Positions 11,794-63,002 of a DNA stretch of 64,000 nt are shown piece after piece. Source of the DNA: Squalus acanthias (taxonomy: Eukaryota); contig CM059432.1 in the NCBI GenBank assembly GCA_030390025.1, forward strand, positions 11,470,001 through 11,534,000, in the 5' to 3' direction. The translations under genes were made by a program, and so were the position numbers. Position 1 is the stretch's first letter. The number at the start of each line of letters is the position of its first letter. Below the pieces are notes generated by a model. The model was not told the DNA's origin and searched no databases. It saw only the letters and a program-made list of their open reading frames with translations.

Positions 11794-11922
11794 CTTGCTT
11801 TAGAACATCAAAAGACTGCAGAAAAGGAGCGCTTATACCTCATATATGCCAAGCAGTGGTGGAGAGAGTATCTTCAGATTAGACCTTCACATAACACCAG
11901 ACTTGTGAAAATCTTTGCACAG
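11794..11922 (+). CDS. CEP76: CEP76 coding exon
   Basis: ttgcag|LALEHQKTAEKERLYLIYAKQWWREYLQIRPSHNTRLVKIFAQ|gtttgt; 129 nt. Confidence 0.95.
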
Positions 11923-12809: not shown

Positions 12810-12940
12810 CTGATGAAGGATTGTACCTGAAATGTTAACTTTTTCCCCATTATCCACGTATGCTGCCTGACCGGCTGAGTGTTTCCAGGATTTTCTGTTT
12901 CTGCTTCAGATTTCCCGCATCCGCAGTATTTTGTATTTTT
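12810..12940 (+). mobile_element. Old Penelope-like terminal-repeat remnant with degenerate hammerhead
   Basis: CTGATGA-AGG..CCT-GAAAtgttaact followed by tgctgcctgacc.gctgagt.tttccag, as in 31297-31445. Confidence 0.55.
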
Positions 12941-15178: not shown

Positions 15179-15524
15179 TGGTTCAACTACCCGCTACCTA
15201 ACCGGCTGAGGGAGCCACCTTTATTAAACTTTTAAATTTAATTGAAGTGTCGTTTTATTTTTAATGAGTATTTTTCTATGTGGAATTAACTCCGACAAAT
15301 ACTTCTGTAACCATGATGAGTAGACAGGTTGAATTAGATTTATTGCATGTCCAAATCAACAAAATCCTTTAGTACTTTAACCTAAAGTACAGGTAGGTGG
15401 AGTTACAAAGCCCGAGTTACAAGGCTCGAGTGGAGCGTAAACGCCAGCATGGACTGGTTGGGCCGAATGGCTTGTTTCTGTGCTGTTTATCTTTTGTAAG
15501 TGTTTGACTTCTGATGTTCTAAAT

Positions 15525-15800
15525 AGAAATTTACGGCACAGAAGGAAGCCATTCGGCCCGTCTTGTCTGTGCCGGCTGAAAAAGAGCTATCCAGCCTAAT
15601 CCCACTTTCCAGCTCTTGGTCCGTAGCCCTGTAGGTTACCACACTTCCAGTGCATATCCGAGTACTTTTTAATTGCGATGAGGGTTTCTGCCTCTACCAC
15701 CCTTTCAGTCAGTGAGTTCCAGACCCCCACCACCCCCTGGATGAAAAAAGTCTTCCTCAACTCCCCTCTAATCCTTCCACCAATTACTTTATATCTATTC
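15525..15800 (-). mobile_element. CR1 LINE 3' end
   Basis: Reverse complement of the CR1 ORF2 end and 3'UTR (ggcacagaagga.gccattcggccc). Confidence 0.75.
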
Positions 15801-16010
15801 CTTCAACAAGTTTCAATTTAATGTCCATTAAGTTGCATGGGATGCCTTCCCTGGGTACAAGCTCAGCTGTTTGATTATACCTTTTTTTTTAAACAGCTTC
15901 TGATTGTAGGATGGTCTTCATTTATTTACATCTGAATTAAATATTTATAAATTGACTCAGTGCTCTTAGCTGAAGGGGCTGACTTTTTTTTAATTTTCTC
16001 CTTCCGTCAG

Positions 16011-16199
16011 GATGAGAATAGTATGAACCGTCCAGTGTGCTCCTATATAAGACCCTTGCGAGCTGGGAGGCTTCTGGACACTCCAAGACAAGCAGCCCGA
16101 TTCGTCAATGTTCTTGGTTACGAAAGAGCAGCCGTGGTTGGAGGTGGAACCAAGCAGGAACAGTGGTGCACTCTGCTGCCTTTTCTCTGCAGAGGCAAG
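16011..16199 (+). CDS. CEP76: CEP76 coding exon
   Basis: cgtcag|DENSMNRPVCSYIRPLRAGRLLDTPRQAARFVNVLGYERAAVVGGGTKQEQWCTLLPFLCRGK|gtattt; 189 nt. Confidence 0.95.
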
Positions 16200-16267
16200 G
16201 TATTTGTTTTGTATATATTTGTATTTTCAAAGACAACAGTGAATTCTGTCTTCAACAGCCAGCTGAT

Positions 16268-18687
16268 CATAGAAGCATAGAATAGTACAGCACAGAAGGA
16301 GGCCATTCGGTCCATTGAATCTGCGCAGATTTTTCAAAGAGCAATCCGGTTAGTCCCACTCCCCCGCTCTTTCCCCAAATCCCTGCAATTTTTTCTCCTT
16401 CAAGTATTTATCCAATTCCCCTTTTGAAGGCTACTATTGAATCTGTATCCACCACCCTATCAGGCAGTGCAGTCCAGATCCTAACCACTCGTTGCATAAA
16501 AAAGTTTTTCCTCATGTCGGATCTGGGGGTTCTTTTGCCAATCACCTTAAATCTGTGCCCTCTGGTTATCGACCATTGGAAACAGTTTCTCTTTATTTCC
16601 TCTACCTAAACCCTTCATGATTTTAAACACCTCTATCAATTCTCTTCTTAGCCTTCTCTGCTCTAAGGAGAACAACCACAGCTTCTCCAGTAATTGCTCA
16701 TCCCTCATCCCTGGAACCATTCTAGTAAATCTCTTCTGTACCCTCTCCAAAGCCTTCACATTCTTCCTAAAGTGTGGTGCCCAGAATTGGACACAATGCA
16801 CCACCACTGTTTTATATAGGTTGAGTATAACTTCCTAGCTTTTGTACCCTATGCCTCTATTTATAATGCCTAGGGATCCCATATGCTTTATTAACTGCTC
16901 TGTTAACCTGTTATGCCAACTTTCAAAGATTTGTGCACAAACTCCCCAGGTCGCTCTCCTCTTACACCCCCTTTAAGATTGTACCATTTATTGTGTATTG
17001 TCTCTCCTCATTCTTCCTGCCAAAATGTATCACCTCGCACTTTTCTGCGTTGAATTTCATCTGCCACGTGTCCGCCCATTCCACCAGCCTGTCTATGTCC
17101 TCTTGAAGTCTATCACTATCTTCCTCACTGTTTACTACACCTCCAAGTTTCGTGTCTTCTGCAAATGTCAAAATTGTGCCCTGTGCCCCCAAGTCATTAA
17201 TGTATATCAAAAACAGCAGTGGTTCTTGGAGAACTCCCCTGTATACTTCCCTCCAGTCCCCAAAACAGCCATTCACAGCTCTCTGTTTTCAATCCCTTAG
17301 CCAATTTTGTATCCACGCTGCTGCTGTCCCTTTTATCCCATGGGCTTCAATTTTGCGACCAAGCTTAATATATGGCACTTTATCAAATGCCTTTTGAAAA
17401 TCCATATACACAACATCAACTGCACTGCCCTCATCCACCCTCTCCGTTACCTCATCAAAAAAACTCAACCAAGTTAGTCAAACACGATTTGCCTTTAACA
17501 AATCCGTGTTAGCTCTCCTTTATCAGTCCATACTTGTCCAAGTGGCTGTTAATTTTCTCCCGGATTATTGTTTCTAAAAGCTTCTCCACCAACGACGTTA
17601 AACTGACTGGCCTTTAATTGCAAGGTTTATCCTTCTCCCCTTTTTTGAACAAGGTGTAACATTTACAATCCTCCAGTCCTTGGAAGATTGTGGCCAGCAC
17701 CTCTGCAATTTCTACCCTTACTTCCTTCAGCAACCTAGGATGCATCCCATCCGGACTGGGTGACTTATCCACTTTAAGTACTGCCAGCCTTTCTAGTACC
17801 TCCTCTTTATTTTTATTTCATCCGGTGTCCCGGCGACCTCCTCGTTTACCATAGCTTTGGCAAAGTCCTCTTCCTTGGTAAACACCGATGCAAAATACTC
17901 ATTTAGTACCTCAGCCATGCCTTCTGGCTGCACCAATACATCTCCATTTTGGGCCTAATTGGCCCCACCACTCCTCTGGCAACCCTTTTACTGTTAATAT
18001 GCCTATAGAAGACCTTTGGATTCCCTTTTATGTTAGTCGCCAATCTATTCTCGTACAGTCTCTTTGCCGCTCTTATTTCCTTTTTCACTTCTCTACTTTT
18101 TATAATTGTCCTGATTCTCCCCTCTATTATCAAGCTGACATCTGTCATGCGCCCCCTTTTTCTGCTTCATCCTACTCTCTTAACATCTTCGTCATCCAGG
18201 GAGCGCTGGCTTTGGTTGCCCTCCCTTTCCCCCTTGTGGGAATGTACTTAGACTGCACCCGAACCATCTCCTCTTTAAAAGGCCGCCCATTGCTCCATTT
18301 CATTTCTGGCTGCCAGTCTTTGACTACAATTTACCTGGGCCAGATCCCTGCACAGTTCGCTGAAATTAGCCCTCCTCCAGTTTAGTATTTTTATTCTAGA
18401 TTGCTCCTTGTCCTTCTCCATAACTAATCTAAACCTTATGATACTATGATCACAATTCCCGAGATGCTTCCCGACTCTGACATTTTCCACTTGATCCACT
18501 TCATTCCCCAGGACTAGATCCAGCAATGCCTCCTTCCTCGTTGGGCAGGAAACATACTGATCAAGAAAATTCTCCTGAACACACTTCAGAAATTCCTCCC
18601 CTTCTCTGCCCTTAACACAATCACTGCCCCATTCAATATTGGGGTAGTTAAAGTCGCCCATTATCACTACTCTATAGCTCTTGCATC
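16268..18687 (-). mobile_element. CR1 LINE, degenerate ORF2 (endonuclease end plus RT), 69 nt from a CEP76 exon
   Basis: IMGDFNYP..LLDLVLGN..CDH (APE endonuclease); FLIYINDL, FAEDTKL, CVQFWAPHFRK; multiple lesions. Confidence 0.9.
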
Positions 18688-22200: not shown

Positions 22201-22724
22201 AACAAGTTATCCCATGTGCTTCTCCTGTGTGTTCTGTAGTCTGCTGCTATTCATCTTATGCTCTTTCTGCTTATTCCCCTTCCCCAGTCTCATCACCTTG
22301 CATTAAATAACCCTTGCCACTTGTCAGCCCAATTCTCCCAACTATCCAGATCCCTCTGTACTTGATTCACTTGTTCTTCGTTATTTGCAATCCGACCCAT
22401 CAGAAAATTTGGTTATCTTCATTTCTGTCTCCTCTTCCAATTTATTTTTATTTATTCATTCTCGGGATGTGGGCGTCGCTATCAAGGCCTGCATTTATTG
22501 CCATCCCTAGTTGCCCTGAGAAGGTGGTGGCAGGCCGCCTTCTTGAACCTCTTCCATATTTTTTGTCACGGTTTTTGATGCAACTGAGGGGCTTAATAGG
22601 GCAGTTCAGAGTCAACCACATTGGGACTGGAGTTACATACAGGCCAAACTGTGCGCAGTGCTCGGGGTGTGGTCTGATCAAGGTATTTGAAGACCAGGAT
22701 CGTCCACAGTGCTCCAAGTGGGCT

Positions 22725-23020
22725 CTTGGTTGGACCACACTTGGAGCGCTCTGCACAGTTCTGGTCTCCGTGTGCCTTGGTTGGACCACACTTGGAGCGC
22801 TGCGCACAGTTCTGGTCTCCGGATGCCTTGGTCGGACCACACTTGGAGCACTGCGCGCAGTTTTGGTCTCCATGTACCTTGGTCGGACCGCACTTGGAGC
22901 GCTCTGCACGGTTCTGGTCTCCATGTGCCTTGGTTGGACCACACTTGGAGCGCTGCGCACAGTTTTGGTCTCCATATACCTTGGTTAGACCACACTTGGA
23001 GCACTGCGCACAGTTCTGAG
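22725..23020 (+). repeat. 51-bp minisatellite (about 6 units) derived from CR1 ORF2
   Basis: Units start 22725, 22776, 22827, 22878, 22929, 22980; they translate LVGPHLER/HCAQFWSP, the CR1 LVRPHLEYCVQFWSP motif. Confidence 0.9.
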
Positions 23021-23180
23021 GTCCATATTATAAAATGGATACAGAGGCACTGGAGAAAAGGCAAAAAAAAAGATTTACAAGGATGGTACCGGAACTGTGA
23101 GATTACCATTATCGGGAAAGACTGAACAGGCTGGGGCTTTATTCTTTGGAGCAGAGACGGCTGAGGAGTGACCTGATGGA

Positions 23181-37467: not shown

Positions 37468-38997
37468 AGCCTAGGGTACTTAATGAAGTGGCCCTAGAAA
37501 TAGTAGATGCATTGCTGATCATCTTCCAACATTCGATGGAATCTGGAACAATACCCATGGATTGGAGGGTAGCTAATGTTACCCCACTATTCAAAAAAGG
37601 TGGTAGAGAGAAAACGGGGAATTACAGACCGGTAAGCCTGACATCGGTAGTGGGGAAAATGCATTATAAAAGATGTAATAGCAGAGCACTTGGAAAACAG
37701 TGACAGGATCGGACAAAGTCAACATGGATTTACAAAAGGTAAATCGTGCTTGACTAATCTACTGGAATTTTTTGAGGATGTAACTGGTAAAATAGATAAG
37801 GGTGTATTTGGACTTTCAAAAGGCTTTCAATAAGGTCCCGCATAAGAGATTAGTGTGTAAAGTTAAAGCACATGGGATTGGGGGCAAGGTATTGACTTGG
37901 ATAGAGAACTGGTTGGCAGACAGAAAGCAAAGAGTTGGAATAAACGGGTCTTTTTCCGAGTGGCAGGCAGTGACTAGTGGGGTACCGCAGGGATCGGTCC
38001 TTGGACCCCAGCTATTCACAATATATATTAATAATCTAGACAAGCGAACTAGATGTAATATCTCCAAGTTTGCAGACGACACAAAGCTGGGTGGGCGTGT
38101 GTGCTGTGAGGAGGATACCGAGAAACTCCAGGATGATTTGGACAGGTTGGGTGAGTGGGCAGAAGCATGGCAGATGCAATATAACGTGGATAATTGCGAG
38201 GTTATCCACTTTGGTGTCAAAAACAGGAAGGCAGATTATTATCTGAATGGCAATAGATTGGGAGAAGGGGAAGTGCAACGAGACCTGGGTGTCCTTGTGC
38301 ACCAGTTGCTGAAGGTAAGCATGCAGGTACCGCAGGCGGTTAAGAAAGCAAATGGTATGTTGACCTTCGTAGCGAGAGGGTTTGAGTACAGGAACAAGGA
38401 TGTCTTGCTGCAGTTGTACAGGGCCTTGGTGAGACCACATCTTGAGTATTGTGTGCAGTTTTAGTCGCCTTATCTGAGGAAGGAGGTTCTTGCCATGGAA
38501 GGAGTTCAGCGAAGATTCACCAGCTGATACCTGGAATGGCAGGAATGACGTATGAGGAGAGATTGGGTCGATTGGGCTTATACTCGCTGGAGTTTAGAAG
38601 AATGAGAGGGGATCTCATTGAAACTTATAAAATTCTGACAGGACTAGACAAACTAGATGCAGGGAGGATGTTCCCGATGGTCGGGAAGTCCAAAACCAGG
38701 GGTCACAGTCTAAGGATAAGGGGTAAGCCATTTTGGACAGAAATTAGGAATTTCTTCACCCAGAGGGTGGTGAACCTGTGGAATTCTCTACCAGAGAAGG
38801 CAGTAGAGGCCAATTCATTAAATATATTCAAGAAGGAGTTGCATATATTTCTTACGGCTAAAAGAATCAAGGGATATGGGGAGAAAGCAGGGACAGGGTT
38901 CTGAATTTGGATGATCAGCCATGATCGCATTGAATGGCGGAGCAGGCTCGAGGGACCGAATGGCCTACTCCTGCACCTATCTTCTATGTTTCTATGT
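37468..38997 (+). mobile_element. CR1 LINE (RT to 3' tail), degenerate
   Basis: YLDFQKAF, SGVPQGSVLGP, KFADDTKL; (ttctatgt)n tail. Confidence 0.92.
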
Positions 38998-41037: not shown

Positions 41038-42137
41038 AATAGTTTTCACTCTATGCTTAATACTCTGTAAACATCAACAATAAATGCTTTTGAACCCTAT
41101 TACTTTGAGGAGCAACTTATAAGTAAGAACACCCATTCCCTAACAGCTTCATGCATGATGAATGTAGTTCATAAACCCAGATTTCTGTAAATTGGGTAAA
41201 ATCAAGCAGAAATGAGGATGGACAACTGTAATACTGGTTCTCTGCCAATTTAGTGCCCCATGCGGCTTCCCACCAGCACTGCCTTCTGGTGACAGCGGCG
41301 CCACGAGTTTAAGAATTTGCATATGTTAATGAGTCCTAATGAAGTTTTCATGTCCTTAGCACCATTTTCTGACATTCGCACGGCTGTTTCATCAACATGC
41401 GCATATAAAACAGGTATCCAAGGTGGCTATTGACAGGAGTGCTGTTAAAGAGCTTTGGCTGAAGACTGCAAGGAAAATGTACTTCTTGGTGAATATTTAT
41501 CTTTATTAATATTTATATAATAAAAATAAGAACTACAGTGGCTCTCAGTTAAGCAACGCCTCGATTTTAAAATTCTCATCCTTGTTTTCAGATCCCTCCA
41601 TGGCCTCGCCAGCCCCACAACCCCCCCCCCCCCCCCCACTGAGATCTGCGCACTCCGCCAGTTCTGTTGCGCATCCCCGATTTTATTTCTCCACCATTGG
41701 CAGCCGTGCCTTCAGCTGCCTGGGTCTAGGCTCTGGAATTCACCCCATAAACCTCCTTTAAGACGCTCCTTAAAACCTAGCTCTTTGACCATGCTTTTGG
41801 TCAGCTGCCCTAACATCTTATATGGCTCGGTGTCAAATTTTGTTTTGATAAACGCTCCTGTAAAGCGCCTTGGGATGTTTTACTACGTTAAAGATGCTAT
41901 ATGAATACAAGTTGTTGTTATCCTTTGTTTTGTTTCCTATTGTTTTCACTTAGGTGTTCTATTACCTTTATGGCAGCCTTCGGGTCAGTGATATTATTGT
42001 CCCAATCTCATTGTTATTACCACAATGGGAATTCCTCGTATTTTGTGTCTTTCGGAGCAACAGAATGGTGTTAGATAAGTCAGACTGGATCAAAGACGCT
42101 GTGCCCTGTTAGTACCCTTGCAATCCCCATTTACAAA

Positions 42138-42222
42138 AGTGAGAAGTCGCACAACACCAGGTTATAGTCCAACAGCTTTATTTGAAATCACAAGCTTTCG
42201 GAGCGCTGCTCCTTCGTCAGGT
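42138..42222 (-). mobile_element. Penelope pLTR fragment with hammerhead core
   Basis: Near-identical to 11333-11416. Confidence 0.85.
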
Positions 42223-42229
42223 TCACCGA

Positions 42230-45170
42230 CGAGTCTAAGACTTATTTCAAGTGTGGGAAGACGGGACACTGGAGGCGGGATTGCCCGGCCCAAAAGGGGG
42301 GGTCAAGCCGAGGGGGTCCTCCCGTGCGAAAACCCCAGGTCACCGAGGCGAAGGAAGCGACCAATGAACCATTTGATGTTCTGGTGGCCGCCCTTCACAA
42401 GGTGCTGGGGAAGGACAAAGGAAGGCTAGACGCTGCCGTGAGCAGCATAACGCCGACCGCACCCACATGTCCCCCTTCATCCTGACTAGAACGCGCCCAG
42501 CCTGAGTACCTGTGTCCGCTCACATATGATGAGTGGGACAGGCCCTGTGTTAAGATGGGGGTGGAGACGGTGCAGGGGAGATATTTGGTGGACACCGGAG
42601 CTTCCAGCACGGTGGTCCATTCGAAGGACCCAACCAATTCACCCTGGTCTAACAAGGTCCCATTTAGCCTAATGGGATTCACAGGGAACGAGCAGGCGGG
42701 GGCAATGTCCAAACCCCTTAGAATAGAGCTAGGGTCCCTCCGCACCAAGTGGAAGTGCGTGCTAATGAAATGGGAGCAACCAGGGTGGGGAGTCCTCGGG
42801 GCTGATTTCATGTTAGCCAACCGGATCATTGTGGACCTGAGGAATCACTGCCTGTGGGGGACAGTGGTCTCGGACAAGACAGAGGAGGTGATAGTGATCC
42901 CCAGAGATAAGGGAGGAGGGGGTAGTGTATGCACCATGAAACCCAAAGGGAGTTACGACCTGGAACAGTTGGTTAGTAGCGCCCCAGCCCAGTACCAGGC
43001 GAATGTACGGGACAACCTCGCTGCATTCGCCACCCATAAACACGATTGTGGCAGGGTGACCGGGGTAGAGGTCCAGGTGCAAGGGGACCCCATGTCATAG
43101 AAACATAGAAACATAGAATCTAGGAGCAGGAGTAGGCCATTCGGCCCATCGAGCCTGCTCCACCATTCAATACGATCATGGCTGATCATCCAAATCCAGT
43201 ACCCTGTCCCTGCTTTTGTGGCCCATGTCTAGGCCACAAAAGCAGTATAGTTTCCCCCGGGAGGCAGAAGCCGACTTGGAGACGGCACTGGGATCCCTGG
43301 TAAACAGGGGGTGTTGAGACTAATAGCCACCCACGTGAACTCACCACTCTGGCCGGTGAAGAAACCCGACCAGTCGTGGAGAGCCACCGTGGACTATCGG
43401 GTCCTTAATAAGAACATCCCAGTTTGCGCGCCCTCAGTCGCAGCTGTCGCCGATCTGATAGGGAGCATTCCAGCAACCGCAACCACATTCACAGTGCTGG
43501 ATATCTCCAACGGGTTTTGGTCGATTCCCCTCAGACGGGAAGACCAATACAAATTTGCATTCACTTTTAAAGGGCAGCAGTATACATGGACATGCCTTCC
43601 CCAGGGGTTCCACAACAGCCCCTCCATATTCCACGAATGCATGGCAGACGCATTAAAAGGCTTCAGCCGACCCCACCAGTTAATCCGGTACGTGGACGAC
43701 CTGCTTTTGTTCTCCGCAGAGGGGGAGAACCATGGGCCACTGCTGGACGAGCTGCTAAAGCTGTTGCAGGAGGCGGGGTTCAAGATCAACCCCAAGAAAG
43801 CCCAGATCGGCCAGGAGGAAGTCAAATTCCTCGGGCTGACCGTAAGGGCTGGTGAAAGGGCCATAGACGAGGCTAGGAGGAAGGCAGTACAGGAGCTACC
43901 AGCCCCCAAGAATGTGACCAGAGTAAGGTCTTTTCTGGGACTCACAGGGTACTGCTGGGACTTCATAGAGGGTTACGCAGCCACGGCAGCCCCTCTGCTT
44001 CGGCTCCTCTGCAAGGGAGTCGAGTGGGAGTGGGATCAGAACTGCCAGGAAGCGTTCACTCGCCTCAAAGGGGATTTGCAGACGGCACCCGCATTGGGAG
44101 CCATTAACGGTGGGGAAGAATTCTTCTTAGAGGTAGCAGCCAGTGGGGATAACTTGAGCGCGGTGTTGCTCCAGGAGCGACACGGCAAGCTACGGCCTGT
44201 GGTATACTCATCTAGGGTTCTCACCGAGGTAGAACGGGGATATTCCAACTGCGAGAGGCACCTCCTAGCCACGCATTGGGCCGTAAAACACTCAGCTTTT
44301 TACGGGTTCATTCCCAATAGTTCTCTTGATCCACCACACACCCACACAGATGCTGTTGGACGGGAGAATCAAAGATGGGACGGTGAGCAGTGCCCGCATT
44401 GCTCGCTGGACATTACTGCTCTCACAGTTGAACTTGAGAGTGCAGGGGTTGATCGAGCCAAAGCTAGCAGCCAACATGATTTACCCAGGGACGGCCCACA
44501 CGTGTACGGTAGAAGGGGTGTGGGATGTAGATGAAGGATTCCGGGCCGGGATACACCCGAGGGGCTGGGACATCTATATAGACGGGTCCAGTTCGGTCGT
44601 GAAGGGGGAGCGTCTCACCGGGTGCAGAATCTATGACCCTACGGCTAAAATAGCGAAGGCCATTAAACTCCCCAACACCCTGAGCGCTCAGCACACCGAA
44701 CTGGTGGCGGTGGTGTACGTGGTCACCCACCCCGACGAGTTCCCCACCCCCTACACCATTTGCTCGGACTCTATGTTCACGTGCAACTCATGCACGGAAT
44801 ACTTGCAATCTGGGTCAGGTGCGGATTCAAGTCCGCAGATGGGAAGCCCCTAGCAACAGCACCGCTGCTAGGTAAAATTTTGGAGGCCACAGGCACCCGG
44901 GGAGATCACTATATTCACACAGTTAAAGCCCATTCAAAGACAGAGCCCAAGTGGGAGGGCAACCAAAAGGCAGACGAGCTGGCCAAACAGGGGGCCAGGG
45001 AAGGCGCATTCTGGGATCCGTACAAAGCAGGTCCGGTAGCAACAATCCAGGACAAGGGAGGCACACAGTGGGTAGCTTTGACCCCGGACTTAAAGCAGGT
45101 CCAAGCCCAGGATCCCGTCCTTAAGGCTGTCCTGGTAAAGAGAGAGAATGGGGAGTCCATAGACGGTCCG
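42230..45170 (+). mobile_element. Endogenous retrovirus fragment: gag end, protease, RT, tether, RNase H (no LTR, integrase or env seen)
   Basis: Knuckle YFKCGKTGHWRRDC; protease LVDTGAS; RT LDISNGFW..LPQGFHNSP..YVDDLL; tether LRPVVYSSR; RNase H YIDGS..SAQHTEL..SDS..VKAH..GNQKADELAK; frameshifts near 43305, 44290 and 44805. Confidence 0.9.
43097..43221 (-). mobile_element. Short CR1-type 3' tail inserted into ERV pol
   Basis: (catagaaa)n tail; TSD CCCATGTC at 43089-43096 and 43222-43229. Confidence 0.85.
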
Positions 45171-46065: not shown

Positions 46066-46156
46066 AATATCTCATTCTATGCATAGGGTCACTTAATGAG
46101 TCATGGTTCACACCTTGTTCAATCTTACATATATATTAACGCTTTGACTAACTATA

Positions 46157-47925
46157 AGAACCCCCAGCTTCTGTCGTGACACTACAGACTTCTTGCAGAA
46201 ACTCAGCACCCATGGACCAGTTGAACCAGGAACACTCCTCGTCACAATGGACGTATCGGCACTCTACACCAATATCCCCCACAATGACGGCATCGCTGCG
46301 ACAGCCTCAGTACTCAACACCAACAACAGCCAATCTCCGGACGCCATCCTACAACTCATCCGCTTCATCCTTGACCACAATGTCTTCACCTTCGACAACC
46401 ATTTTTTTACCCAAACACACGGAACAGCCATGGGGACCAAATTCGCACCCCAATACGCCAACATCTTCATGCACAAGTTCGAGCAAGACTTCTTCGCTGC
46501 ACAGGACCTCCAACCAACGCTGTACACCAGATACATCGACGACATCTTCTTCCTTTGGACCCACGGCGAAGGATCACTGAAAGGACTACACGATAGCATC
46601 AACAGGTTCCATCCCACCATCAAACTCACCATGGACTACTCCTCAGAATCGGTTTCATTCTTGGACACACGAATCTCCATCAAAGACGGACGCCTCAGCA
46701 CGTCACTCTACCGCAAGCCCACGGACAACCTCACGATGCTCCACTTCTCCAGCTTTCACCCTAACCACGTTAAAGAAGCCATCCCCTATGGACAAGCCCT
46801 GCGAATACACAGGATCTGCTCAGACGAGGAGGAACGCAATGGACACCTACGGACACTGAAAGACGCCCTCGTAAGAACGGGATATGACGCTCGACTCGTC
46901 GATCGACAGTTCCGACGGGCCACAGCGAAAAACCGCATAGACCTCCTCAGAAGACGAACACGGGACACAACCAACAGAGTACCCTACGTCGTCCAGTACT
47001 TCCCCGGAGCGGAAAAACTACGCCATGTTCTTCGCAGCCTTCAACATGTCATCGATGACGACGAACACCTTGCTAAGGCCATCCCCACGCCTCCACTACT
47101 CGCCTTCAAGCAGCCGCCTAACCTCAAAAGTACCATCGTTCGCAGCAGATTACCCATCTTTCAGGAGAACAGCAACCACGACACCACACAACCCTGCCAC
47201 GGCAACCTCTGCAAGACATGCCAAATCATGGACACAGATACCATCATCACACGTGAGGACACTACCCACCAGGTACATGGTACATACTCATGTGACTCGG
47301 CCAACGTTGTCTACCTGATACGTTGCAGTAAAGGATGCTCCAGAGCATGGTACATCGGCGAGACCATGCAGACACTGAGACAACGTATGAACGGACACCG
47401 CGCAACAATCGCCAGGCAGGAGGGTTGCCTCCCAGTCGGGGAACACTTCAGCAGTCAGGGGCATTCAGCCTCGGATCTGCGGGTAAGCGTTCTCCAAGGC
47501 GGCCTTCGGGATACACGACAGCGCAAAATCATAGAGCAGAAACTGATAGCCAAGTTCCGCACTCATGAGGATGGCCTCAATCGCGATATCGGGTTCATGT
47601 CACGATACAGAACGTGACTTGACATCATGGCCGGTCTTTCCAGGTTTTGTTTTAAAAAGACTAACACAAATGGAGAGGATATGCAGCCAGCAGGTGTTTT
47701 GACACGTTGGACCCCCTGGGACACATCTCATTGTCTTGGCTGTGCTCTTAGTGTGTCTTTGATGTAGGGAAAGATTTGAATAGATTTTCTCTGTGTTTAT
47801 ATTGTGAATTCTGGGAGATTCTCTCACAGCTACCCTACCTGAGGAAGGAGCGAGCAGCTCCGAAAGCTTGTAAAATTAAATAAATCTGTTGGACTATAAC
47901 CTGGTGTTGTGCGACTTCTCATTTT
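46157..47925 (+). mobile_element. Penelope-like element, 5'-truncated, uninterrupted RT plus GIY-YIG ORF (46193-47617) and pLTR
   Basis: TMDVSALYTNIP, GTAMGT, RYIDD, CxxC linker, VVYLIRC..WYIGET..LRQRMNGHR, GLNRD; pLTR with hammerhead and AATAAA. Confidence 0.93.
47836..47872 (+). ncRNA. Minimal hammerhead ribozyme motif in Penelope pLTR
   Basis: TAC-CTGAGGA-A-GGAGC-gagca-GCTCC-GAAA-GCTT-GTA. Confidence 0.72.
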
Positions 47926-50935: not shown

Positions 50936-52004
50936 TAGGTCTTTGCAGTTTGTGGATTATCCGACAGTGCTGGAATAGAGATGGCATTCAGCAGCCTCCT
51001 CTGTGCGTACTGTTTTGTTCTTTCACTTGTTCCATTCAGATATTATCACTGCCAATAGTGTTAGATGTGATTTTCACTCTAACTATACTTGATTGTAATT
51101 TACAGACAAGCAAGGACATGGAGGAAATTCCCTCCAACACCTATACGCTAGATTTCTGTATAATCCTAGTCGTTGGACAGAAATTCTAGCCCTGAAGCTT
51201 TCCACTGGGTTTCAAAGTGAAATCATTGAAAGCTTTCAATTTTTTTTTAGATGTCTTGTAAGATATCTTTTTAGATATCTCTGTAATCTCCTCCAGCCTA
51301 CAACCCTCCGAGATATCTGCACTCCTCCAATTCTGGCCTCTTGAGCATCCCCGATTTTAATCGCTCCACTATTGGCGGCCGTGCCTTTGGCTGCCAAGGC
51401 CCTAAGCTCTGGAATTCCCTCCCTAAACCTCTCCGCCTCGCGACCTCTCTTTCAGCCTTTGAGACGCTCTTTAAAACCGACCTCTTTGACCAAGCTTTTG
51501 GTCACCTGCCCTAATATCTCTTTATGTGGCTCGGTGTGAAATTTTGTTTGATGTCGCTCCTGTGAAGCGCCTTGGGACGTTTTATTATGTTAAAGGCGCT
51601 CTATAAATACAAGTTCTTGTTGTGAGGTTTTTAGAAAGATTAACCCTAATATTACATTTTAAATTGGTGGGAGAGTAGCAGAAGTCAGTGAAGTTGACTT
51701 TCCTCTTTACCTACAAATTTATTTACAACAAATAAATATGCTATGGAAAATAAACTTGTCCTTTCATAAATTAACAGCTTCCCTATTTGTGCCTGTGGCT
51801 TAGGGGGAAAGTGCTGCAGTCCATAGAGAAGAAATAAGAAGTTATTTCTATTCATACGACAGGTCTCTTCCTAAGTCCCATTTTACATAGGTTTTTGCAT
51901 CTTAGAGTCTGCTACTGATCTTTCATTTGTGACTGAATAGAAATAGTTCATGGGTGATGCAGGGGTTATTTTTTTTTTTTTTGCTTTCACGAGTGACTTA
52001 AAAA

Positions 52005-52563
52005 AGTAGAGAAGTTATTCTGAACCTTTATAAAGCGCTGCTTGGGCCACAACTGGAGTATGGCGTCCAGTTCTGGTCACCACACTTTAGGAAGGATGTG
52101 AGGGCCCTTGAGAGGGTGCAGAGGAGATTTACCAGAGTGGTTCCGGGGATGGGGGGATCTTAGCTACAAGGTTGGAGAAGCTGGATTTGTTTTCATTAGA
52201 GCAAAGGAGGTTGAGGGGTGATTTGATAAGAGGTGTACAAGATTATGACGGGTTTGGATAGGCTAGGCGGGGAAAGGCTGCTCCCGCTAGTTGATGGTAC
52301 AAGGACTAGGGACACAGATTTAAGGTTTTGGGCAAGAGATACAGGGGGGATGTGAGGGAAAAAAAATTTACGCAGCGAGTGGTGATGACCTGGAATTCGC
52401 TGCCGACGGAAGTGGTGGAAGCGGAGACACTCAATGTTTTGAAGGGGAGACTGGATAGGCACTTGAGGGAAATAAACTTGCAGGGGATAGAGCGGGGGAA
52501 TGGGACTGACTGGATTGCTCTGCAGAGAGCCGGCACGGACTCGATGGGCCATTATGACTCTAT
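52005..52563 (+). mobile_element. CR1 3' end
   Basis: LYKALLGPQLEYGVQFWSP..KFTQRVVMTWNSLP; (tatgactc)n tail split by the Harbinger insertion. Confidence 0.85.
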
Positions 52564-52899
52564 GGGGGAAAAATTCGGTTGCTTAGCGCCTCCCGTTAGC
52601 GCCCTAAGAGGTCGCTAATGGGGTGCAACGCAACTAGCGCCCGGGCACGGTGATGTTTGCGCCGCTCGCGAAATTGACCCCTCCTTTCCGCCTGCCGCAA
52701 GCAACGACAGGGAGACTGGAACGTTTTCCAGTCGGTGAGGGCCTGGGGGGGGGCACTATTTAAATGCGCCCTCTTCCTGCCTTTTTTTGTGGGAGACTTT
52801 TTTGCATTCTGAGAGAGAAAGACTTCTGCATAGAGTCAACACTGTGTGAAGTAGTTTTGGCTACTGAGCATCACTTTGCAGGTTCTTTTGGATTTGACC

Positions 52900-54062
52900 T
52901 TCATTACTTTGATTGTCAAGAGACTCTGGGGGCTGCACTGATTCGGGGCGTCGTCCTGCGCCTGCAGAATCAGAGGCATAGAGACGCAGAGAGAGAGTGG
53001 CAATCATGGTCAGACGGAGGAGGGCCAACAGGCCTCTGCACAGGAGACCTTACCCTCCCATGGTATTCCGGGAACATTAATTTGTCTGAGGAGCAGTGTT
53101 TGCGCAGGCTGCGCTTCAGCAAGGAGGTGGTCACTGAGCTCTGCCACCTGCTGCAGCCAGATCTGCAGCCTCAACTGAGGACCAGGATGTCTCTGTCGGT
53201 GGCAGTGAAGGTCACAGTGGCTCTGAGTTTTTATGCCACCGGCTCCTTTCAAGCAGCTACTGGGGACCTCGCCAATATCTCACAGTTCGCGGTCCATTGC
53301 TGTATCCGACAGGTCACAAATGCCCTCTATAAAAGGAGACACCAGTACATCTCTTTCTCGATGACCCGGGCCAAACAGCATGAATGCGCATTGGGGTTTG
53401 CGAGGATAGCGGGCTTCCCCATGGTGCAGGGCGCCATTGACTGCATGCATGTGGCATTGTGGGCACTGCAGGAGAATGCAGAGGTTTTCCAAAACTGCAA
53501 GGGGTTCCACTCCTTAAACGTCCAGTTGGTGTGAGACCACAGACAGCTGATACTCACTGTCAATGCCCGCTATCCTGGCAGCAGCCACGATGCTTTCATC
53601 CTGCGTCAGACTGGTGTGCCAGAGCTTTTCCAGGCAGCGCATCAGCCAAGTGGTTGGCTCCTCAGGGACAAGGGTTATCCATTCTGGACCTGGCTGATGA
53701 CACCGCTCCATAACCCCAACACCCCTGCTGAGCTGCGGTACAATGAGAGCCATCTCGCCACTAGGAACATCATTGAGCAGACGATCGGCGTGCTCAAGCA
53801 ACGGTTCCGCTGTCCGGACCACTCGGGAGGAGCCCTGCAGTACTCGTCTGAGCGAGTCTCCCTCTTCATAGTTGTTTGCTGCATTCTTCATAACCTTGCA
53901 ATCCTCAGGACCCAGCCAATGCCACCAGGCCTTGGTGCATCACCGGAGGAGGAGGAAGAAGAGGAGGAGGATGATCAGCAGCAGCATCAAGGCGGGAGGG
54001 AGGGCCACAATGTTGAAACTGCAAGGGCTGTCCGTCAAAGACTGATAACAAGCCGCTTCTAG
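52900..54062 (+). pseudogene. Harbinger (HARBI1-like) DDE transposase with an in-frame stop at 53532-53534
   Basis: LSEEQCLRRLRF, ALSFYATGSFQ, GAIDCMH, YPGSSHDAFIL, LRDKGYP, RNIIEQTIGVLKQRFRC; true start uncertain. Confidence 0.88.
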
Positions 54063-54369
54063 GCTCCTACTCAGGAAATTGCTTCTGGCATGGAGAACAA
54101 CATGATGGAAAGCAACCTGCAACCCCTATAGCCGGCCAAGGCAGCAATGATTCCAAAGGCCAAACATGTACATTTTCAATACAAAAACTTTTTTATTTTA
54201 CAAACTCTGTGTGTGTCATTTATTTATGACAAACTAATAGAAACAAACACAAAAACTCATTAATTAACATAACTGGTTCTCACAACCTGGAGATAATGGC
54301 CAAAACACTAAACAAAAGTTATTACACGAACCTCGGCCTTTAATAAAAACATTCCCAACATTTTGTCAG

Positions 54370-56137
54370 ACCTCCTACTTTTTGCCCTTCGATGGTGATC
54401 TCCTTCCCTTGCCCACTTGCCCCCTTCCCACCCCACTGCTCCTCTGTAATGGGGCCTCAGTGGCTGCAGCAAGGCTGGTGGAAAGCTGCTGAATGTCAGA
54501 TCCTGAGACTACAGATCCCTTGAAGGATGCCCTCGACCAGCTCTGGGCCTGGAGGGCCCGGCTGCAGACTGCACCAACTCTGCATGGGCGGCAGCAATCT
54601 GGGCTACAGGCGGTGGCAAGTGCAATGGGGAAGTGACAGTGCTGGGAGCAGGAATGCTGTCATCTTGAGAGAGGACAGCACCTCCCTGCTCGACCGACAC
54701 ACTGGCACTCCCACAGGGCAGCACCTCAGCATCCGGAGCAATCTGCTGGAGCACAGATTGCTGGCCTGCTGCGGCGCTGTGAGAGCCCCGGGGAAATGTG
54801 TCCGAACCAGCGACAATGGCAGCAGTCAGTGCTTGCGTGGCCTCAATCTGAGACTGCATGAGACCAGTCTGAGATTGGATCACGGCGGCCAGTGACTGAA
54901 TTGCAGCACTAAGCAGTTGCGATGCATCCGCCTGTGCTGCAGCGTAGTGCTCCACACTCCTTGCCAGTGATTCAATGCATTCGGGCACCCTTCCCACTGC
55001 ACCCATGAGCTGAGCATGCATGTCCACCGCCTGGGTGTTCATTTCAGCGATGAGCCGCTCCTCCTCTGCGTCCAGTGCAGCACGACTCACTGGCCTACTC
55101 TCCCTCCGGGGAGAAGGCCCCCGAGCTTCCCTACCCCCATCGCATTGCTGCAGCCCGCTGGGTCCCGGAGCTTCACCCTCATCAGACCCTAACCCCCTGC
55201 TCTCCTCCAGGGAAGACGTGGTCCCAGTGTGGGCATGGGCTTCCTCGGGAGAGGGTGGTGCTGAGGCTTCGGCTTCCTCTTCCTCCTCGCCTGCAGCTTC
55301 GCTCCCACTGGCAGCTTGAGGGCCCGTCTCCTCAGCTGGTGAATCACCATCTGAAAGTAGGGAGGTACAAGAGTGGCTTTAGCATGAGGACAGGGGGGCA
55401 GTAAGGGAGGAAGGAGTGGAGCGATTTAGTAAGTTGGATTGAAAGTGTAAAAGGCTGGTGTTGTGAGGGACAAGTGGAATGAGAGAGGAGAGAAAGCTGA
55501 TGACCTTACCATTGCTGTCTCGAACGGGGTCGGCGTCTCCAGGGGCGACGGGACCGATCACCTGGCTTGCCACAATCCTGTGGACGGCGCCTCAAGATCG
55601 CTGAGGGGTTGCAGCTGAGGCGGTTCTCCACCCGTCGTTGCTGCTGTCTCCTGTTATGAGATAGCTTGGCCTGCAAGAAAAAGGACGGCGTCTGAGTAAA
55701 TATACAGCCATGGTCTTACCTGATGTGCCTCCCATAGTTGAATAGCCCTTACTGTATGCAAAGTGTGGAATGTGCGTGTGTGTTTTATGAGAGGACCATA
55801 GGTCATGGATGAGTGTTGGGCATTGGGATTTTAAGACCCTCTGGCCATAGAGTGAGGTTGAGATGGAGGGATGGAGAGGTAGTGAAAAACAGCCACTCAC
55901 CCTAACGACCTGAGTGAGGTCGTTGAACTTTTTGCGACATTGCGTATGGGTCCTGGGCACCATGCTCCTGGAGGAGACGTGCTGAGCCACCTTCCTCCAC
56001 ACGCTTCTGTAGTCACGCGGCAATGGCCTCCTGCCACTCTCAGGGTACGGTACAGCTCTTCTGCGCTCCACTGCGCCAACCAGAGCCTCCAAGGCCCGGT
56101 CGCTGAAGCGCTGAGCTCATTCTCTCACCCTCTCCAT
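54370..56137 (-). pseudogene. Harbinger Myb/SANT-like DNA-binding gene, three exons (56137-55901, 55670-55510, 55350-about 54400)
   Basis: QRFSDRALEALVGAVERRR..WRKVA..RTHTQCRKKFNDL; gtgagt and gtaagg donors, ttgcag and tttcag acceptors; early stop and frameshifts. Confidence 0.75.
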
Positions 56138-56514
56138 AGTCCTTGGCTGGAAAATTTAGGCACAGGTCTCTCCAGGCCGAGATTCAAGGCTGCAATGAGC
56201 TGGGTGTGGCTGGAGAGCAAGATCGACCCTCCCCTGTAAGAACTGTCCGGCGCCAGTGTGTCTGTCTTCCATTGCTAACTGACATCACCTGCGCTTTGCC
56301 CGCACTCTGAGTTAGCGCCTCGCTCCTCAGCCTTTGTGCCTTAAGACAGGTGTGTAGCGCCTGATTTAGCGCTCCAATCACCTCCAGGGGCGATAAAAGC
56401 CAAGTTTGCAGTCGGAGGTGATAATAAACTTTGCGCCTGGCCGATAATTGCGCCCCAAACGGGGCGATACCGAATTCTCCCCCTATGACTCTAGTACGGC
56501 ACGCCTCTCGAAAA

Positions 56515-56920
56515 GGCGTCAGCTGTGGCTCAGTCATTAGCACTCTTACTTCTGAGTCAGGATGTTTTGAGTTCAATTCCCACTCCAGGGACTTGAGCAC
56601 ATAATCGAGGCTGATACCTCAGTGCAGTACGGAGGGGGCGCTGCACTGTTGGAGGTGCCGTCTTTCGGATGGGACATTAAGCCGAGGCCCCGTCAGCTTT
56701 TTCAGTGTCCTGGCCAATATTTATCCCCTCAACCAACAGCACTAAAATCAGATAATCTGGCGATTGCTGTTTGTGGGAGCTTGCTGTGCGCAAATTGCCT
56801 GCCGCATTTCCTACGTTACAACAGTGACCACAATTCAAAAAGTACTTCATTGGCTGTAATGTTTTAGGATGTCCTGAGGTTGTGAAAGGTGCTGTATAAA
56901 TGCAAGTCTTTCTTTTCTTT
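56515..56920 (+). mobile_element. Deu-domain SINE with internal deletion
   Basis: tRNA head, partial core, tail. Confidence 0.75.
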
Positions 56921-56997
56921 TTGCTTCTAGTAGAACATACCATGTCCTAACAACTCTGCATTAAAACATTCTCCTATTTTCCCTTTGTTCTGTTATT

Positions 56998-58328
56998 ACA
57001 TAGATACATAGATACATAGAAGATAGGAGCAGGAGTAGGCCATCCGGCCCTTCGAGCCTGCTCCGCCATTTAATGAGATCATGGCTGATCCTCCAATTCA
57101 GTATCCCGTCCCCGCCTTCTCTCCGTAACCCTTAACCCCTTTTGCCTGTAGAAATATATCTAATTCCCTCTTAAATATATTTAATGAGCTGGCGTACACT
57201 GCCCTCTGTGGCAATGAGTTCCACAGGTTCACCACCCTCTGAGTGAAGAAATTCCCCCTCATTTCTGTCCTAAATGGTTTAGCCCTTATCCTTAAATTAT
57301 GTCCTCTAGTTCTGTTCTCACCCGCCAAGGGAAACATTCCTTCTGCATCTAGTCTGTCTAGACCTGTCAGAATTTTATACACTTCTATGAGGTCCCCTCT
57401 CAATCTTCTAAACTCCAGTGTGTACATCCCTAAACTACATAGTCTCTCCTCATAGGTCAATCCCGCCATTCCTGGTATCAGCCTGGTGAATCGCCGCTGC
57501 ACCCCCTCCATGGCAAGAACATCTTTCCTCAGATGAGGCGACCAAAACTGTACACAGTACTCGAGGTGTGGTCTCACCAGTGCCCTGTACAGCTGCAGCA
57601 AGGTATCCCTGTTCCTGTATTCCAACCCTTTTGCTATGAAGGCCAGCATACCGTTTGCCTTCTTGACCGCCTGTTGCACCTGCATGCTCGCCTTCAGTGA
57701 CTGGTGTACAAGAACACCCAGGTCTCTCTGTACTTCCCCCTCTCCCAATTTATTGCCATTTAAATAATAATTTGCCCTCCCGTTCCTGCACCCAAGGTGG
57801 ATAACTTCGCACTTGTCCACATTATAGTGCATCTGCCATTTATCCGCCCAATCACCCAGTCTGTCCAAATCGCTCTGGAGCTTCCTGGTCTCCTCCTCTG
57901 AGCCCACCCCCCCTCCTAGTTTAGTGTCGTCTGCAAATTTGGAAATGCTGCATCCGACTCCCTGATCCAGGTCATTAATGTAAATTGTGAACAGCTGGGG
58001 ACCCAGGACAGATCCCTGTGGTACCCCACTTGTTACTGCCTGCCATTCAGAAAATGAGCCGTTTATTCCAACTCTCTGTTTTCTATCTGACAGCCAGTTC
58101 TCTATCCACGTCAATACTTTCCCCTTTATCCCATGAGCTTCAATTTTCCCTGCTAATCTTTTATGTGGGACCTTATCGAAGGCCTTTTGGAAGTCCAGGT
58201 ACACCACATCTACTGGCTCTCCCCCATCTATTTTACCAGTTACTCCCTCAAAAAATTCCAATAGATTAGTCAAGCACGATTTACCCTTTGTAAATCCATG
58301 TTGACTCTGTCCTATCCTGTCCCCATTT
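56998..58328 (-). mobile_element. CR1 LINE, 5'-truncated, open RT ORF (57098-58273)
   Basis: 391-aa uninterrupted CR1 RT; (ctatgtat)n tail. Confidence 0.93.
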
Positions 58329-59704
58329 GATGATATTGATGATATTAAATTTACATCCTATAATTACCAACTCACTGACCAATGGAAATAGTTTTTTTAA
58401 ATCTATTTACCTCATCAAAACCCCTCATAGTTTTAAACATCGCTATCAGATCGCCTCTTAACCTTCTCAGTTTCAATGAAAGAGCTCCATTTTATTTTAG
58501 TCTCTCCTCATAACTAAAGCCTCTCATCCCTGGTATCATCATAGCAAATCTCTTATTTATTCTCGCCATAGCCCTACGAAGGCAGAGGGGCCCAAAACTA
58601 GCCCATCTCCTACATTAAAAACAGTGACGACACTTCAAAAGTACTTCATTGGCTGTAAAGCGCTTTGGGACGTCCTGAGGTCATGAAAGACGCTGTATCA
58701 ATGTAATCCTTCCCTTCCCTCCTCTTCCCTTTTTCCTTTTTCCTTTTTCTTTTCTTTCTTCACAATAGCCTGAAACCGCTGCAGACAATCGGTGGGACAG
58801 CCACCGTTGCTTTGGCCAGCCCATGGCCCTGTCCAAAACTGCAAAGACCGAGTCATTTAGGTATTCAGGTTGGGCACCCCACCTTGTGGCAGCACCTCCC
58901 AAACCCACAACCTCTACCACCTAGAAGGACAAGGGGGCAGCAGGTGCATGGGAACACCACTACCTCTAAGTTCCCCTCCAAGTCACGCGCCATCCTGACT
59001 TGGACATGTATCACCATTCCTTCCAAATGATGGAAACACCCTACCGAACAGCATTGTGGAAGAGGGCCCACCACCACCACCACCACCTCCTCAAGGGAAA
59101 CTATGAATGGACAATAAATACCGGTCTTGCCAGCAAGACCCACATCCTGAGGAATTTTTTTTTTTTTTAAAGAATCAATCAAAATCTGAAGGCAAAAGTT
59201 TCTGCTGGAGTTACATTGATTGCCCAGTGTAATTCCAGCCATTCTCTGACCATTCCCAGGGGGCTCTGCCCAGCAGAGCCCGGACATTCCACCAAAAATT
59301 GTTTAAAATAGCCTGACCCTGGAAAAACTGAGCATGAATGTTTAGCTGTGTTTCCGTTAAGCTGCAGAGCTGGTGCCAGTGCAACAAAAACTCTGAATCC
59401 AGGGCATGTCATTTAAAGAAAGAAAGACTTGCATTTCTATAGCGCCTTTCACGATCTAGTGGATAGGAAATGGCAGACTTGTTAAATGTGGACTTTGTAT
59501 CCATTTTCAGAGTGGACGAAGAGGATAAAATGCTAGCGGTACAAGGGAACAAAGAAAAAATGAATTGTATTTATATAGCGCCTTTCACGATCTCAGGATG
59601 TTCCAAAGCGCTTTACAGCCAATGAAGTACTTTTGAAGTCTAGTCGCTGTTGTAATGTAGGAAACGCGGCAGCCAATTTGCACACAGCAAGGTCCCACAA
59701 ACAG

Positions 59705-62700
59705 CATAGAAACATAGAAACATAGAAAATAGGTGCAGGAGTAGACCATTCGGTCCTTCGAGCCTGCACCGCCATTCAATGCGTTCATGGCTGAACATGC
59801 TACCTCAGTACCCCATTCCTGCTTTCTCGCCATACCCCTTGATCCCCCTAGTTGTGAGTATTATATCTAACTCCCTTTTGAATATATTTAGCGAACTGGC
59901 CTCAACAACCTTCTGTGGTAGAGAATTCCACAGATTCACCACTCTCTGGGTGAAGAAGTTCCTCCTCATCTCAGTCTTAAATGGCTTCCCCTTTATCCTT
60001 AGACTGTGACCCCTGGTTTTAGTTTTCCCTAACATTGGAAACATTCTGCCCGCATCTAATTTGTCTAAACCAGTCAGGATTTTAAACGTCTCTATAAGAT
60101 CCCCCCTCATTCTTCTGAACTCCAGAGGATACAAGTTCAGTTGATCCAGTCTTTCTTGATATGTCAGTCTGGCCATCCCAGGAATCAATCTAGTGAACCT
60201 TCGTTGCACTCCCTCAATAGCAAGAATGTCCTTCCTCAAGTTAGGAGACCAAAACTGCACACAATACTCCAGGTGTGGCCTCACCAAGGCCCTGTACAAC
60301 TGTAGCATCACCTCCCTACTCCTGTACTCAAATCCCCTTGCTATGAAGGCCATCATGCCATTTGCTTTCTTGACTGCCTGCTGCACTTGCCTTCCCACCT
60401 TCAGTGACTGATGTACCATGACGCCCAGGTCTCGTTGCACCTCCCCTTTCCCTAATCTGCCACCATTCAGGTAATAGTCTGCCTCCCTATTTTTACCACC
60501 AAAGTGGATAACCTCACATTTATCCACATTGTACTTCATCTGCCATACATTTGCCCATTCACCCAACCTGTCCAAGTCACTCTGTAGCCTCCTAGCATCC
60601 TCCGCATTGTTCACACTGCCTCCCAATTTAGTGTCATCCGCAAATTTGGAGATATTACAATTAATCCCTTCGTCCAAATCATTAATATATAATGTAAACA
60701 GCTGGGGCCCCAGCACCGAACCCTGCGGTACCCCGCTGGTCACTGCCTGCCATTCTGAAAAGTACCCATTTACTCCTACTCTTTGTTTCCTGTGTGCCAA
60801 CCAGTTCTCAATCCACGTCAACACATTACCCCCAATCCCATGTGCTTTAACTTTGCACACCAATCTCTTGTGTGGGACCTTGTCGAAGGCCTTCTGAAAG
60901 TCCAAATACACCACATCTACTGGTTCCCCCCCGTCCACCCTATTGGAAACATCCTCAAAAAATTCCAGAAGATTTGTCAAGCATGATTTCCCTTTCACAA
61001 ATCCATGCTGACTTGGACCTATCATGTCGCCACTTTCCAAATGGTCTGTTATGACATCTTTAATAATTGATTCCATCATTTTACCCACCACCGATGTCAG
61101 GCTGACCGGTCTATAATTCCCTGCTTTCTCCCTCCTTTTTTAAAAAGAGGGGTTACATTAGCCACCCTCCACTCCTTCGGAACTGATCCAGAGTCTAAGG
61201 AATGTTGGAAAATGATCGTCAATGCATCCACTATTTCCAAGGCCACCTCCTTCAGTACTCTGGGATGCAGACCATCAGGCCCTGGGGATTTATCAGCCTT
61301 CAGTCCCATCAATTTCCCCAACACCTTTTCCCGACTGATAAGGATTTCCCTCAGCTCCTCCCTCTTACCAGATCCTTTGATCTCTTTTATTTCCGGAAGG
61401 TTGTTTGTGTCCTCCACAGTAAACACCGAACCAAAGTACTTGTTCAATTGATCTGCCATTTCTTTGTTCCCCATTATGACTTCCTCTGTTTCTGACTGCA
61501 GGGGACCTACGTTTGTTTTTACTAACCTCTTTCTTTTTACATATTTATAGAAGCTTTTGCAGTCCGTTTTAATGTTCTCCGCAAGCTTCCTTTCATATTT
61601 TATTTTCCCTGCCCTAATCAAACCCTTCGTCCTCCTCTGCTGAGTTTTAAAGTTCTCCCAGTCCCCGGGTTTGCTGCTACTTCTGGCCAATTTGTATGCC
61701 ACTTCCTTGCTTTTAATACTATCCCTGATTTCCCTTGTTAGCCATGGTTGAGCCACCTTCCCTTTTTTATTTTTACGCCAGACAGGGATGTACAATTGCT
61801 GTAGTTCATCCATGCGATCTCTAAATGTCTGCCATTGCCCTTCCACTGATAACCCCTTAAATATCGCTTGCCAATCTAACATCGCCAATTCACGCCTCAT
61901 ACCCTCAAAGTTGCCTTTATTTAAGTTCTGGACCATGATCTCTGAATTAACTATTTCCTTCTCCATCCTAATGTAGAACTCCACCATACTATGGTCACTC
62001 TTCCCCAAGGGGCCTCCCACCACAAGATTGCTGATTAGTCCTTCCTCATTACACAACACCCAGTCCAGGATGGCCTCCCCTCTAGTTGGTTCCTCAACAT
62101 ATTGGTTTAGGAAACCATCCCTTAAACACTCTAGGAAATCCTCCTCCACCGTATTGCTTCCAGTTTGAGTAGCCCAATCTATATGCATATTAAAGTCACC
62201 CATGATAACTGCTGCGCCTTTTTTGCATGCACCTCTGATTTCCTGTTTCATACCCTCCCCCACCTCACTACTACTGTTTGGAGGTCTGTACACAACCCCC
62301 ACTAACGTTTTCTGCCCTTTGGTGTTCTGCAGCTCAACCCATATTGATCCCACATCCTCCAAGCTAATGTCCTTCCTAGCTATTGCATTAATCTCCTTTT
62401 TAACCAGCAATGCTACCTCACCCCCTTTTCCTTTTATTCTATCCTTCCTGAATGTTGAATACCCCTGGATATTCAGTTCCCAGCCTTGATTGTTCTGGAG
62501 CCACGTCTCTGTAATCCCAATCACATCATATCCGTTAACATCAATTTGCACAGTCAATTCATCCACCTTATTACGGATACTCCTTGCATTAAGACACAGA
62601 GCCTTTAGGCTTGTTTTATTAACACCCTTTGTCCTTTTAGACTTATGATTTAGTATGGCCCTTTGTGTTTCTTGCCTTTGTTTACTCGGATTTCCCTTAT

Positions 62701-62773
62701 TGTTTCTCACCCTTCTAACATTTGTTTCTGACTGCATATTACTTCCCCCTGTTTCGCTACATAGGTTCCCATT
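59705..62773 (-). mobile_element. CR1 LINE with nearly complete ORF2 (APE plus RT, single frameshift near 61.12 kb), nested in a Deu SINE
   Basis: CLNARSIRNK, GITETWL, VYRPP, MGDFN, SDH; RT ORF 59805-61091; host SINE halves 59560-59706 and 62774-62920. Confidence 0.95.
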
Positions 62774-63002
62774 CAATGTGATAATGACCAGATAATCTGT
62801 TTTAGTGATGTTGATTGAGGAATAAATATTGGCCAGGACACCGGGAATAACTCCCCTGCTCTTCTTCTAAATAGTGCCAGGTAGCAGAGAGGGCCTCGGT
62901 TTAACGTCTCATCCGAAAGACTGATGCTGTGCTGGTGTTAAGCTGATCTTAGCTGAGGCAGAGGTAACTGTGATACGGTTGGACACAGCATTCCTGAGTT
63001 AT

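Follow-up and report, generated by a model that had tools for sequence, protein, structure and literature searches.

Results and Discussion

The decayed element and its gag-pol junction

The way in which Pol is expressed serves to classify retroviruses, and a decayed endogenous retrovirus in the 64,000-nt stretch of Squalus acanthias DNA analyzed here (the window) raises the question whether the single TGA between its gag and its protease is a readthrough signal or a trace of decay. The element covers approximately positions 42224–45167 in the order gag-PR-RT(YVDD)-tether-RNase H (Table 1), and this gag-PR-RT order together with the tether and the second RNase H is that of Retroviridae-like elements. 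Both of its ends are truncated, with the 3' end falling short of integrase, and three frame changes have accumulated (Table 1). The insert between protease and RT is flanked by an 8-nt duplication (43089–43096 and 43222–43229). At the 5' break related contigs begin matching at 42224–42232, one contig of 1807 nt carrying a different sequence further upstream, and the summed contig depth is in the millions over the abutting repeat versus hundreds to thousands within gag. The copy in the window is unable to make Pol and is a dead relic.

Table 1: Features of the element and its 5' border (positions in the window).
Feature	Position	Strand	Evidence and remarks
High-copy host repeat outside the retrovirus, abutting the 5' break	42133..42222	.	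5 other matches in the window, 89–99%
gag 3' remnant: nucleocapsid knuckle and Pro/Ser-rich tail	42224..42482	+	Pfam zf-CCHC; remaining gag absent
CCHC zinc knuckle	42243..42284	+	Pfam zf-CCHC; first Cys position is Tyr in the window copy
gag stop TGA with CTAG behind it, putative type II readthrough signal	42483..42489	+	in-frame position
Protease and spacer in the gag frame, catalytic DTGA at 42591	42486..43096	+	Pfam RVP; 53% to P0001
Predicted hairpin, candidate stimulator, starting 27 nt from the stop	42509..42542	+	fold prediction
Tail of a host repeat (133 nt), insertion separating protease from RT	43097..43229	.	matched at 9 further places in the window, identity up to 99%
Reverse transcriptase (YVDD) and tether, frame change near 43310	43230..44348	+	79% to P0001
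End of tether and second RNase H, frame changes near 44300 and 44800	44296..45167	+	element stops before integrase

The gag frame is open from 42186 to the TGA at 42483–42485, which is followed by CTAG (42486–42489), and the same frame then continues for 204 codons to 43100, beginning LERAQPEYLCPLTYDEWDRPCVKM. Pfam recognizes zf-CCHC before the stop (E 2e-6) and the retroviral protease RVP behind it (E 2.5e-5); at 42243–42245, where the first Cys of the knuckle belongs, the copy reads Tyr. Reading frames and Pfam matches thus confirm what had been noticed from the letters alone, namely a single TGA with CTAG between a knuckle-bearing gag tail and an in-frame protease. Across the two strands of the window, only 4 out of 5874 stop triplets belong to a TGACTAG, and among 2314 TGA triplets 4 continue with CTAG. 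As UGACUA defines type II viral readthrough in a recent review (PMC13517186), the junction has the sequence of such a signal, UGA then CUA(G) at the in-frame boundary of two coding regions. The TAG at 42487 sits outside the gag and pol frame, and the UAG-G context of gammaretroviruses is absent; a gammaretroviral register using this TAG inside the same seven letters was rejected, as its frame is closed at 42427–42448.

Conservation of the stop in related copies

From 24 sequencing runs, 17 (six studies) contain at least a third of the sampled words, and four runs from organisms A, B, C and E (three studies) were aligned with 3131, 3586, 11980 and 3329 contigs, respectively. The differences examined were the best 40 of 356, and as each of them makes up at least 52% of the depth in some run, we infer that they are ranked by share. 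The earlier note had named a sense codon in other copies as the observation that would make the TGA a post-insertion mutation; among these best 40 of 356 differences no majority change lies in 42483–42489 in the contigs of the four runs. The neighbouring positions 42473, 42479, 42480 and 42491 do vary, three of them silently, and among 12 of 21 indel rows none falls within the motif, the nearest ones at 42470 and 42476 adding up to three bases.

Between 42480 and 42491 the summed depth grows 2.6- to 218-fold in every one of the four runs (from 2969 to 8296, from 84 to 18364, from 146 to 382 and from 1840 to 5653), depth not being copy number. In four X15 contigs the match sets in precisely at 42483, the preceding letters being unrelated; two X4 contigs skip 204 and 207 bases and rejoin at 42481 and 42494. 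Together, the rise in depth and these joins indicate that, beginning at the stop, divergent subfamilies have the sequence in common. Eight of the 32 pieces listed bridge the junction with 31 letters on each side and are 5–15% different from the window, the sites of difference not being part of the list. At the level of majority variants in the four runs, stop and context are therefore kept across copies, and this supports TGA-CTAG as a probable feature of the family rather than a product of decay in the window copy. Over the protease core (42534–42725) two runs show 10 to 100 times the summed contig depth of the gag tail, which suggests related high-copy subfamilies sharing only this core.

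Geometry of the junction and start of the protease

In the window 80 codons separate the stop from the knuckle, counted from its first Cys position, and a further 36 lead on to the catalytic Asp. The corresponding values are 82/32 in reference record L125, 80/40 in L138, which by size and stop context would be WDSV, and 75/35 in L136, whose TGA AGA is that of SSSV; gammaretrovirus-type reference records show 30–35/27. The spacing in the window is that of the presumed readthrough junctions of fish retroviruses.

The earlier note had the protease reading frame begin at the ATG at 42555, and while the same-frame continuation after the stop was correct, this start was not. The RVP match already sets in at codon 17 behind the stop (about 42534), and a PL..RP motif at the protease N-terminus, common to the relatives and L125, precedes this only in-frame ATG. 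Between the stop and the ATG three of five listed changes are silent. Taken together, the motif and the silent changes indicate that this stretch was likely translated from upstream.

Alternative explanations for the stop

A mutation private to the window locus would be the simplest cause of an in-frame TGA, and the copy is indeed decayed, with an insertion, three frame changes, truncations and other private changes. However, six positions are listed at which 80–100% of the depth in every run disagrees with the window copy, so that a private stop mutation should have appeared in the same list; none is found at 42483–42485, whereas neighbours three bases off are listed. A post-insertion origin is highly improbable and, as judged from the contigs, largely refuted. 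It is just as hard to believe that, after termination at UGA, pol was reached through ATG 42555 by reinitiation or by leaky initiation, or that a ribosomal frameshift led into it. The ATG has a fair context and P0001, the closest protein, is called from the equivalent Met, but initiation there would lose the conserved protease N-terminus, and for a frameshift the two non-gag frames are both closed by stops at the junction and the sole upstream slippery heptamer is off register.

A nonsense change could also have struck a master copy with an ancestrally fused gag-pol and have been amplified in trans, with CTAG following by chance. Fused gag-pol is found in a coelacanth gene model (P0042, residues 225–265), where an open frame with Gln aligned to the window stop counts against readthrough, and in ten lokiretrovirus entries of the accessible PMC7947760 supplement; moreover, copies with a sense codon could sit among the differences beyond the best 40 of 356. 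Yet CTAG follows a TGA by chance at a rate of only 4/2314, divergent subfamilies begin to align at the stop, the stop position equals that of natural junctions, and P0001, the only longer relative of the protease frame found, likewise starts after the junction, which makes this scenario very unlikely. Also unlikely, if a little less so, is a spliced mRNA for Pol on the model of foamy viruses, with CTAG as 3' splice site and TGA as a plain gag stop. It stays as a rival because of the pyrimidine-rich tract before the AG at 42488–42489, whose 22 nt are 77% pyrimidine, the highest value among 116 YAG sites in the element, and in four related proteins a starting Met stands a few residues ahead of the protease motif, as it does in foamy Pol. 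But the Pro/Ser codons of the gag tail also account for the tract, the four X15 contigs match from 42483 and not across it, and the Met starts may reflect the choice of the gene caller. Splicing would require neither a shared frame of gag and pol nor a UGA in exact register; the ATG at 42555, the sole one in frame upstream of the catalytic motif, falls after the protease N-terminal motif, and three of seven lokiretrovirus junctions in the accessible supplement read TGA-CTAA.

Proposed readthrough mechanism

We therefore prefer the reading in which ribosomes would read through TGA-CTAG to make Gag-Pol in this retrovirus family, with a probability of about 80%. Leaky termination is proposed here from a type II context for which readthrough has been measured elsewhere, and the same suggestion in the earlier note is supported, for the family, by the kept stop, the geometry and this context. 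In the accessible part of PMC4132726 UGA-CUAG gives 7–31% readthrough in four mammalian genes and UGA-CUA alone 1.5%; UGA is described as the preferred stop, and the motif alone as no guarantee of efficiency. Most ribosomes would stop at the UGA and release Gag, while the CUAG context would weaken recognition by the release factor; now and then a near-cognate tRNA would be taken instead, and a few percent of the time translation would go on into protease-RT-tether-RNase H-integrase. The Gag:Pol ratio could thus be set without a frameshift or the gammaretroviral UAG pseudoknot. As the window copy is dead, it would have been the ancestral virus or sister copies still intact that used the signal, and the presence of the signal does not make the window locus functional.

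Folding of the downstream region, which the earlier note had proposed as a check, did give a predicted hairpin (Table 1) that may assist readthrough, but it is not statistically exceptional (z −1.17 and −1.07, best overlapping window rank 14 of 172). Among alphaviruses some have such a downstream stem-loop as an optional stimulator. An Rfam scan gave no match above noise. Within the element, local folding is most stable (z about −3.9) at 42980–43059 in the protease-RT spacer, away from the stop.

Comparison with known junctions

The contrast with gammaretroviruses, said in the earlier note to read through UAG with a pseudoknot, was right as far as it went, the loci examined having TAG followed by GG or GA. 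It is incomplete because UGA junctions have already been described in fish and frog retroviruses: beside UAG junctions for gamma-, epsilon- and snakehead retroviruses, the accessible part of PMC13517186 (a review of August 2026) gives UGAAGA for SSSV, UGACGA for ZFERV from zebrafish and UGAAGU for RMEV from frog, and PMC8278194, as far as accessible, an in-frame TGA at the gag-pol junction of XtERV-S. The same portion of the review treats epsilonretrovirus readthrough, and likewise readthrough outside gammaretroviruses, as unverified. UGA suppression at gag-pol is thus already known, and the CUA context is what appears to be new.

Gamma- and epsilonretroviruses (type III, UAG-G, with a pseudoknot in MoMLV) resemble the window element in having gag and pro-pol in one frame with one stop between knuckle and DTGA. 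In contrast to them the window element has UGA with CUAG instead of UAG-GG/GA, its RT lies outside their clade, and its stop is without an exceptional downstream structure. SSSV, ZFERV, RMEV and XtERV-S share the UGA at an in-frame junction with presumed readthrough, but none of the contexts listed for them has CUA behind the stop; besides, the SSSV-like record L136 belongs to the class I clade, unlike the window element, and XtERV-S is without a knuckle and has YIDD where the window has a knuckle and YVDD. Reference record L125, presumably snakehead retrovirus by its stop context, has a similar protease start (APL..GRP), similar spacing and the best reference RT match, whereas its junction is UAG-GGC and the trees give no supported grouping of the two. 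Its TAG GGC is the snakehead retrovirus context given in the accessible part of PMC13517186, and SnRV-like ERVs (clade Huo) occur in cartilaginous fish including the elephant shark CmiERV lineage I, according to the accessible part of PMC4422223. Identical to the window over all seven bases, as far as the sources were accessible, are alphaviruses and the genes OPRL1, OPRK1, AQP4, MAPK10 and MDH1; unlike there, the signal in the window would govern a retroviral Gag:Pol ratio.

Our literature search, with subscription papers and Repbase outside its scope, found no UGA-CUA at a retroviral junction. Such a context may nevertheless be contained in those sources or in a survey from 2003 on recoding in retrotransposons. 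Such a junction is unreported in the accessible parts of PMC4422223, PMC4299795, PMC6001957, PMC12440569, PMC13524379, PMC8922424 and PMC12067270, and, by word counts in the accessible text, of PMC9040795. A pattern search for the junction in viral contigs returned 120 stretches, mostly chance, of which three loci encode RT. At about position 2001 of L025, L029, L065 and L071 gammaretrovirus junctions contain TGACTAG, but their in-frame stop is the TAG, and this is a trap for motif searches.

Relationship to other retroviruses

Quick trees with SH-aLRT support were calculated from rows without class II or lokiretroviruses, one of them minus nine near-redundant reference rows and another minus L144, five foamy-type and two partial rows. 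In these trees the window RT groups with the retrovirus-like rows apart from Ty3/Gypsy (SH-aLRT 100), the class I rows form a clade with 99–100 support that excludes it, and four foamy-type rows form their own clade, again with the window outside. The best reference match of the RT, L125, reaches 38%, and the window RT sits on a long branch. Membership in the foamy viruses was rejected by the position of the RT and by the knuckle, foamy Gag being without CCHC in the accessible part of PMC8278194; ERV3/ERV4 was rejected as zf-CCHC is present, whereas their Gag has no zinc finger in the accessible part of PMC4299795. By these sequence comparisons the element is retrovirus-like and neither class I nor foamy nor, as judged by the knuckle, ERV3/ERV4.

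The closest protein, P0001 (RT 79%, protease 53%), encodes an integrase, and a whale shark relative (P0016) reaches 52% over a short stretch. Next after P0001 come frog and coelacanth proteins annotated as NYNRIN-like. P0039, P0004, P0041, P0043, P0040 and P0006 from frog, coelacanth and turtle, annotated as NYNRIN-like or Gypsy integrase-like, are retroviral Pol with 42–46% to P0001, and this clade appears to be unclassified. A search of protein representatives gave 36 matches without a close relative spanning the junction, P0015 covering knuckle and protease at only 29%. No relative was found in the viral contigs searched with P0001, and four 23-residue matches of the protease frame in metagenome contigs were treated as noise.

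Lokiretroviruses and a possible third route to Gag-Pol

In the accessible part of the PMC7947760 supplement all seven lokiretrovirus gag stops read by eye are TGA-CTA (TGA CTAG in Ofa, Cne, Pyo and Sau, TGA CTAA in Bsp, Dcl and Lro) and, also by eye, the gag stops are in frame with the start of pol; Bsp slips frame further downstream and Lro has an ATG two codons past the stop. These seven junctions come from 24 entries, 10 of them annotated with fused gag-pol. The main text (Wang and Han 2021) makes no mention of readthrough or stop codons. Lokiretroviruses thus have TGA-CTA gag stops, which speaks for the readthrough reading, and, like the window element, a dual RNase H. They nevertheless are a different lineage: in the accessible material about 70 codons separate stop and catalytic Asp (four cases, by eye) versus 36 in the window, the protease motif is, by eye, unlike that of the window, and the hosts listed exclude cartilaginous fish.

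As both lineages stand on early branches, UGA-CUA(G) could be an ancestral or a repeatedly evolved mode of expression. At somewhat less than even odds, we tentatively regard it as an overlooked third route to Gag-Pol in the lineage of the window and in many lokiretroviruses, possibly preceding the gammaretroviral UAG-pseudoknot. A type II signal in a retrovirus, common to lokiretroviruses, would offer a short testable cassette for Gag:Pol ratios on early branches. For annotators it is also a warning that TGA-CTAG stops at such junctions should not be scored as decay.

Other sequences in the window

Downstream of the element an open RT frame of 489 codons (46148–47617, plus strand) has RVT_1 as its only Pfam match and ends in a GIY-YIG-like motif; we take it to be probably a Penelope-like element. 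The regions 57101–62866 (minus strand) and 37796–38904 (plus strand) are presumably pieces of CR1/L2-type LINEs. An endonuclease domain is located at 61100–62866, and the 3' tails of the LINE pieces match the insert at 43097–43229. The region 52000–57000 is GC-rich (0.51–0.57) with frames of 256 and 289 codons without a Pfam match, and tandem arrays are found at 14586–15175 and 22674–23077, with periods of 19/25 nt and 51 nt, respectively.
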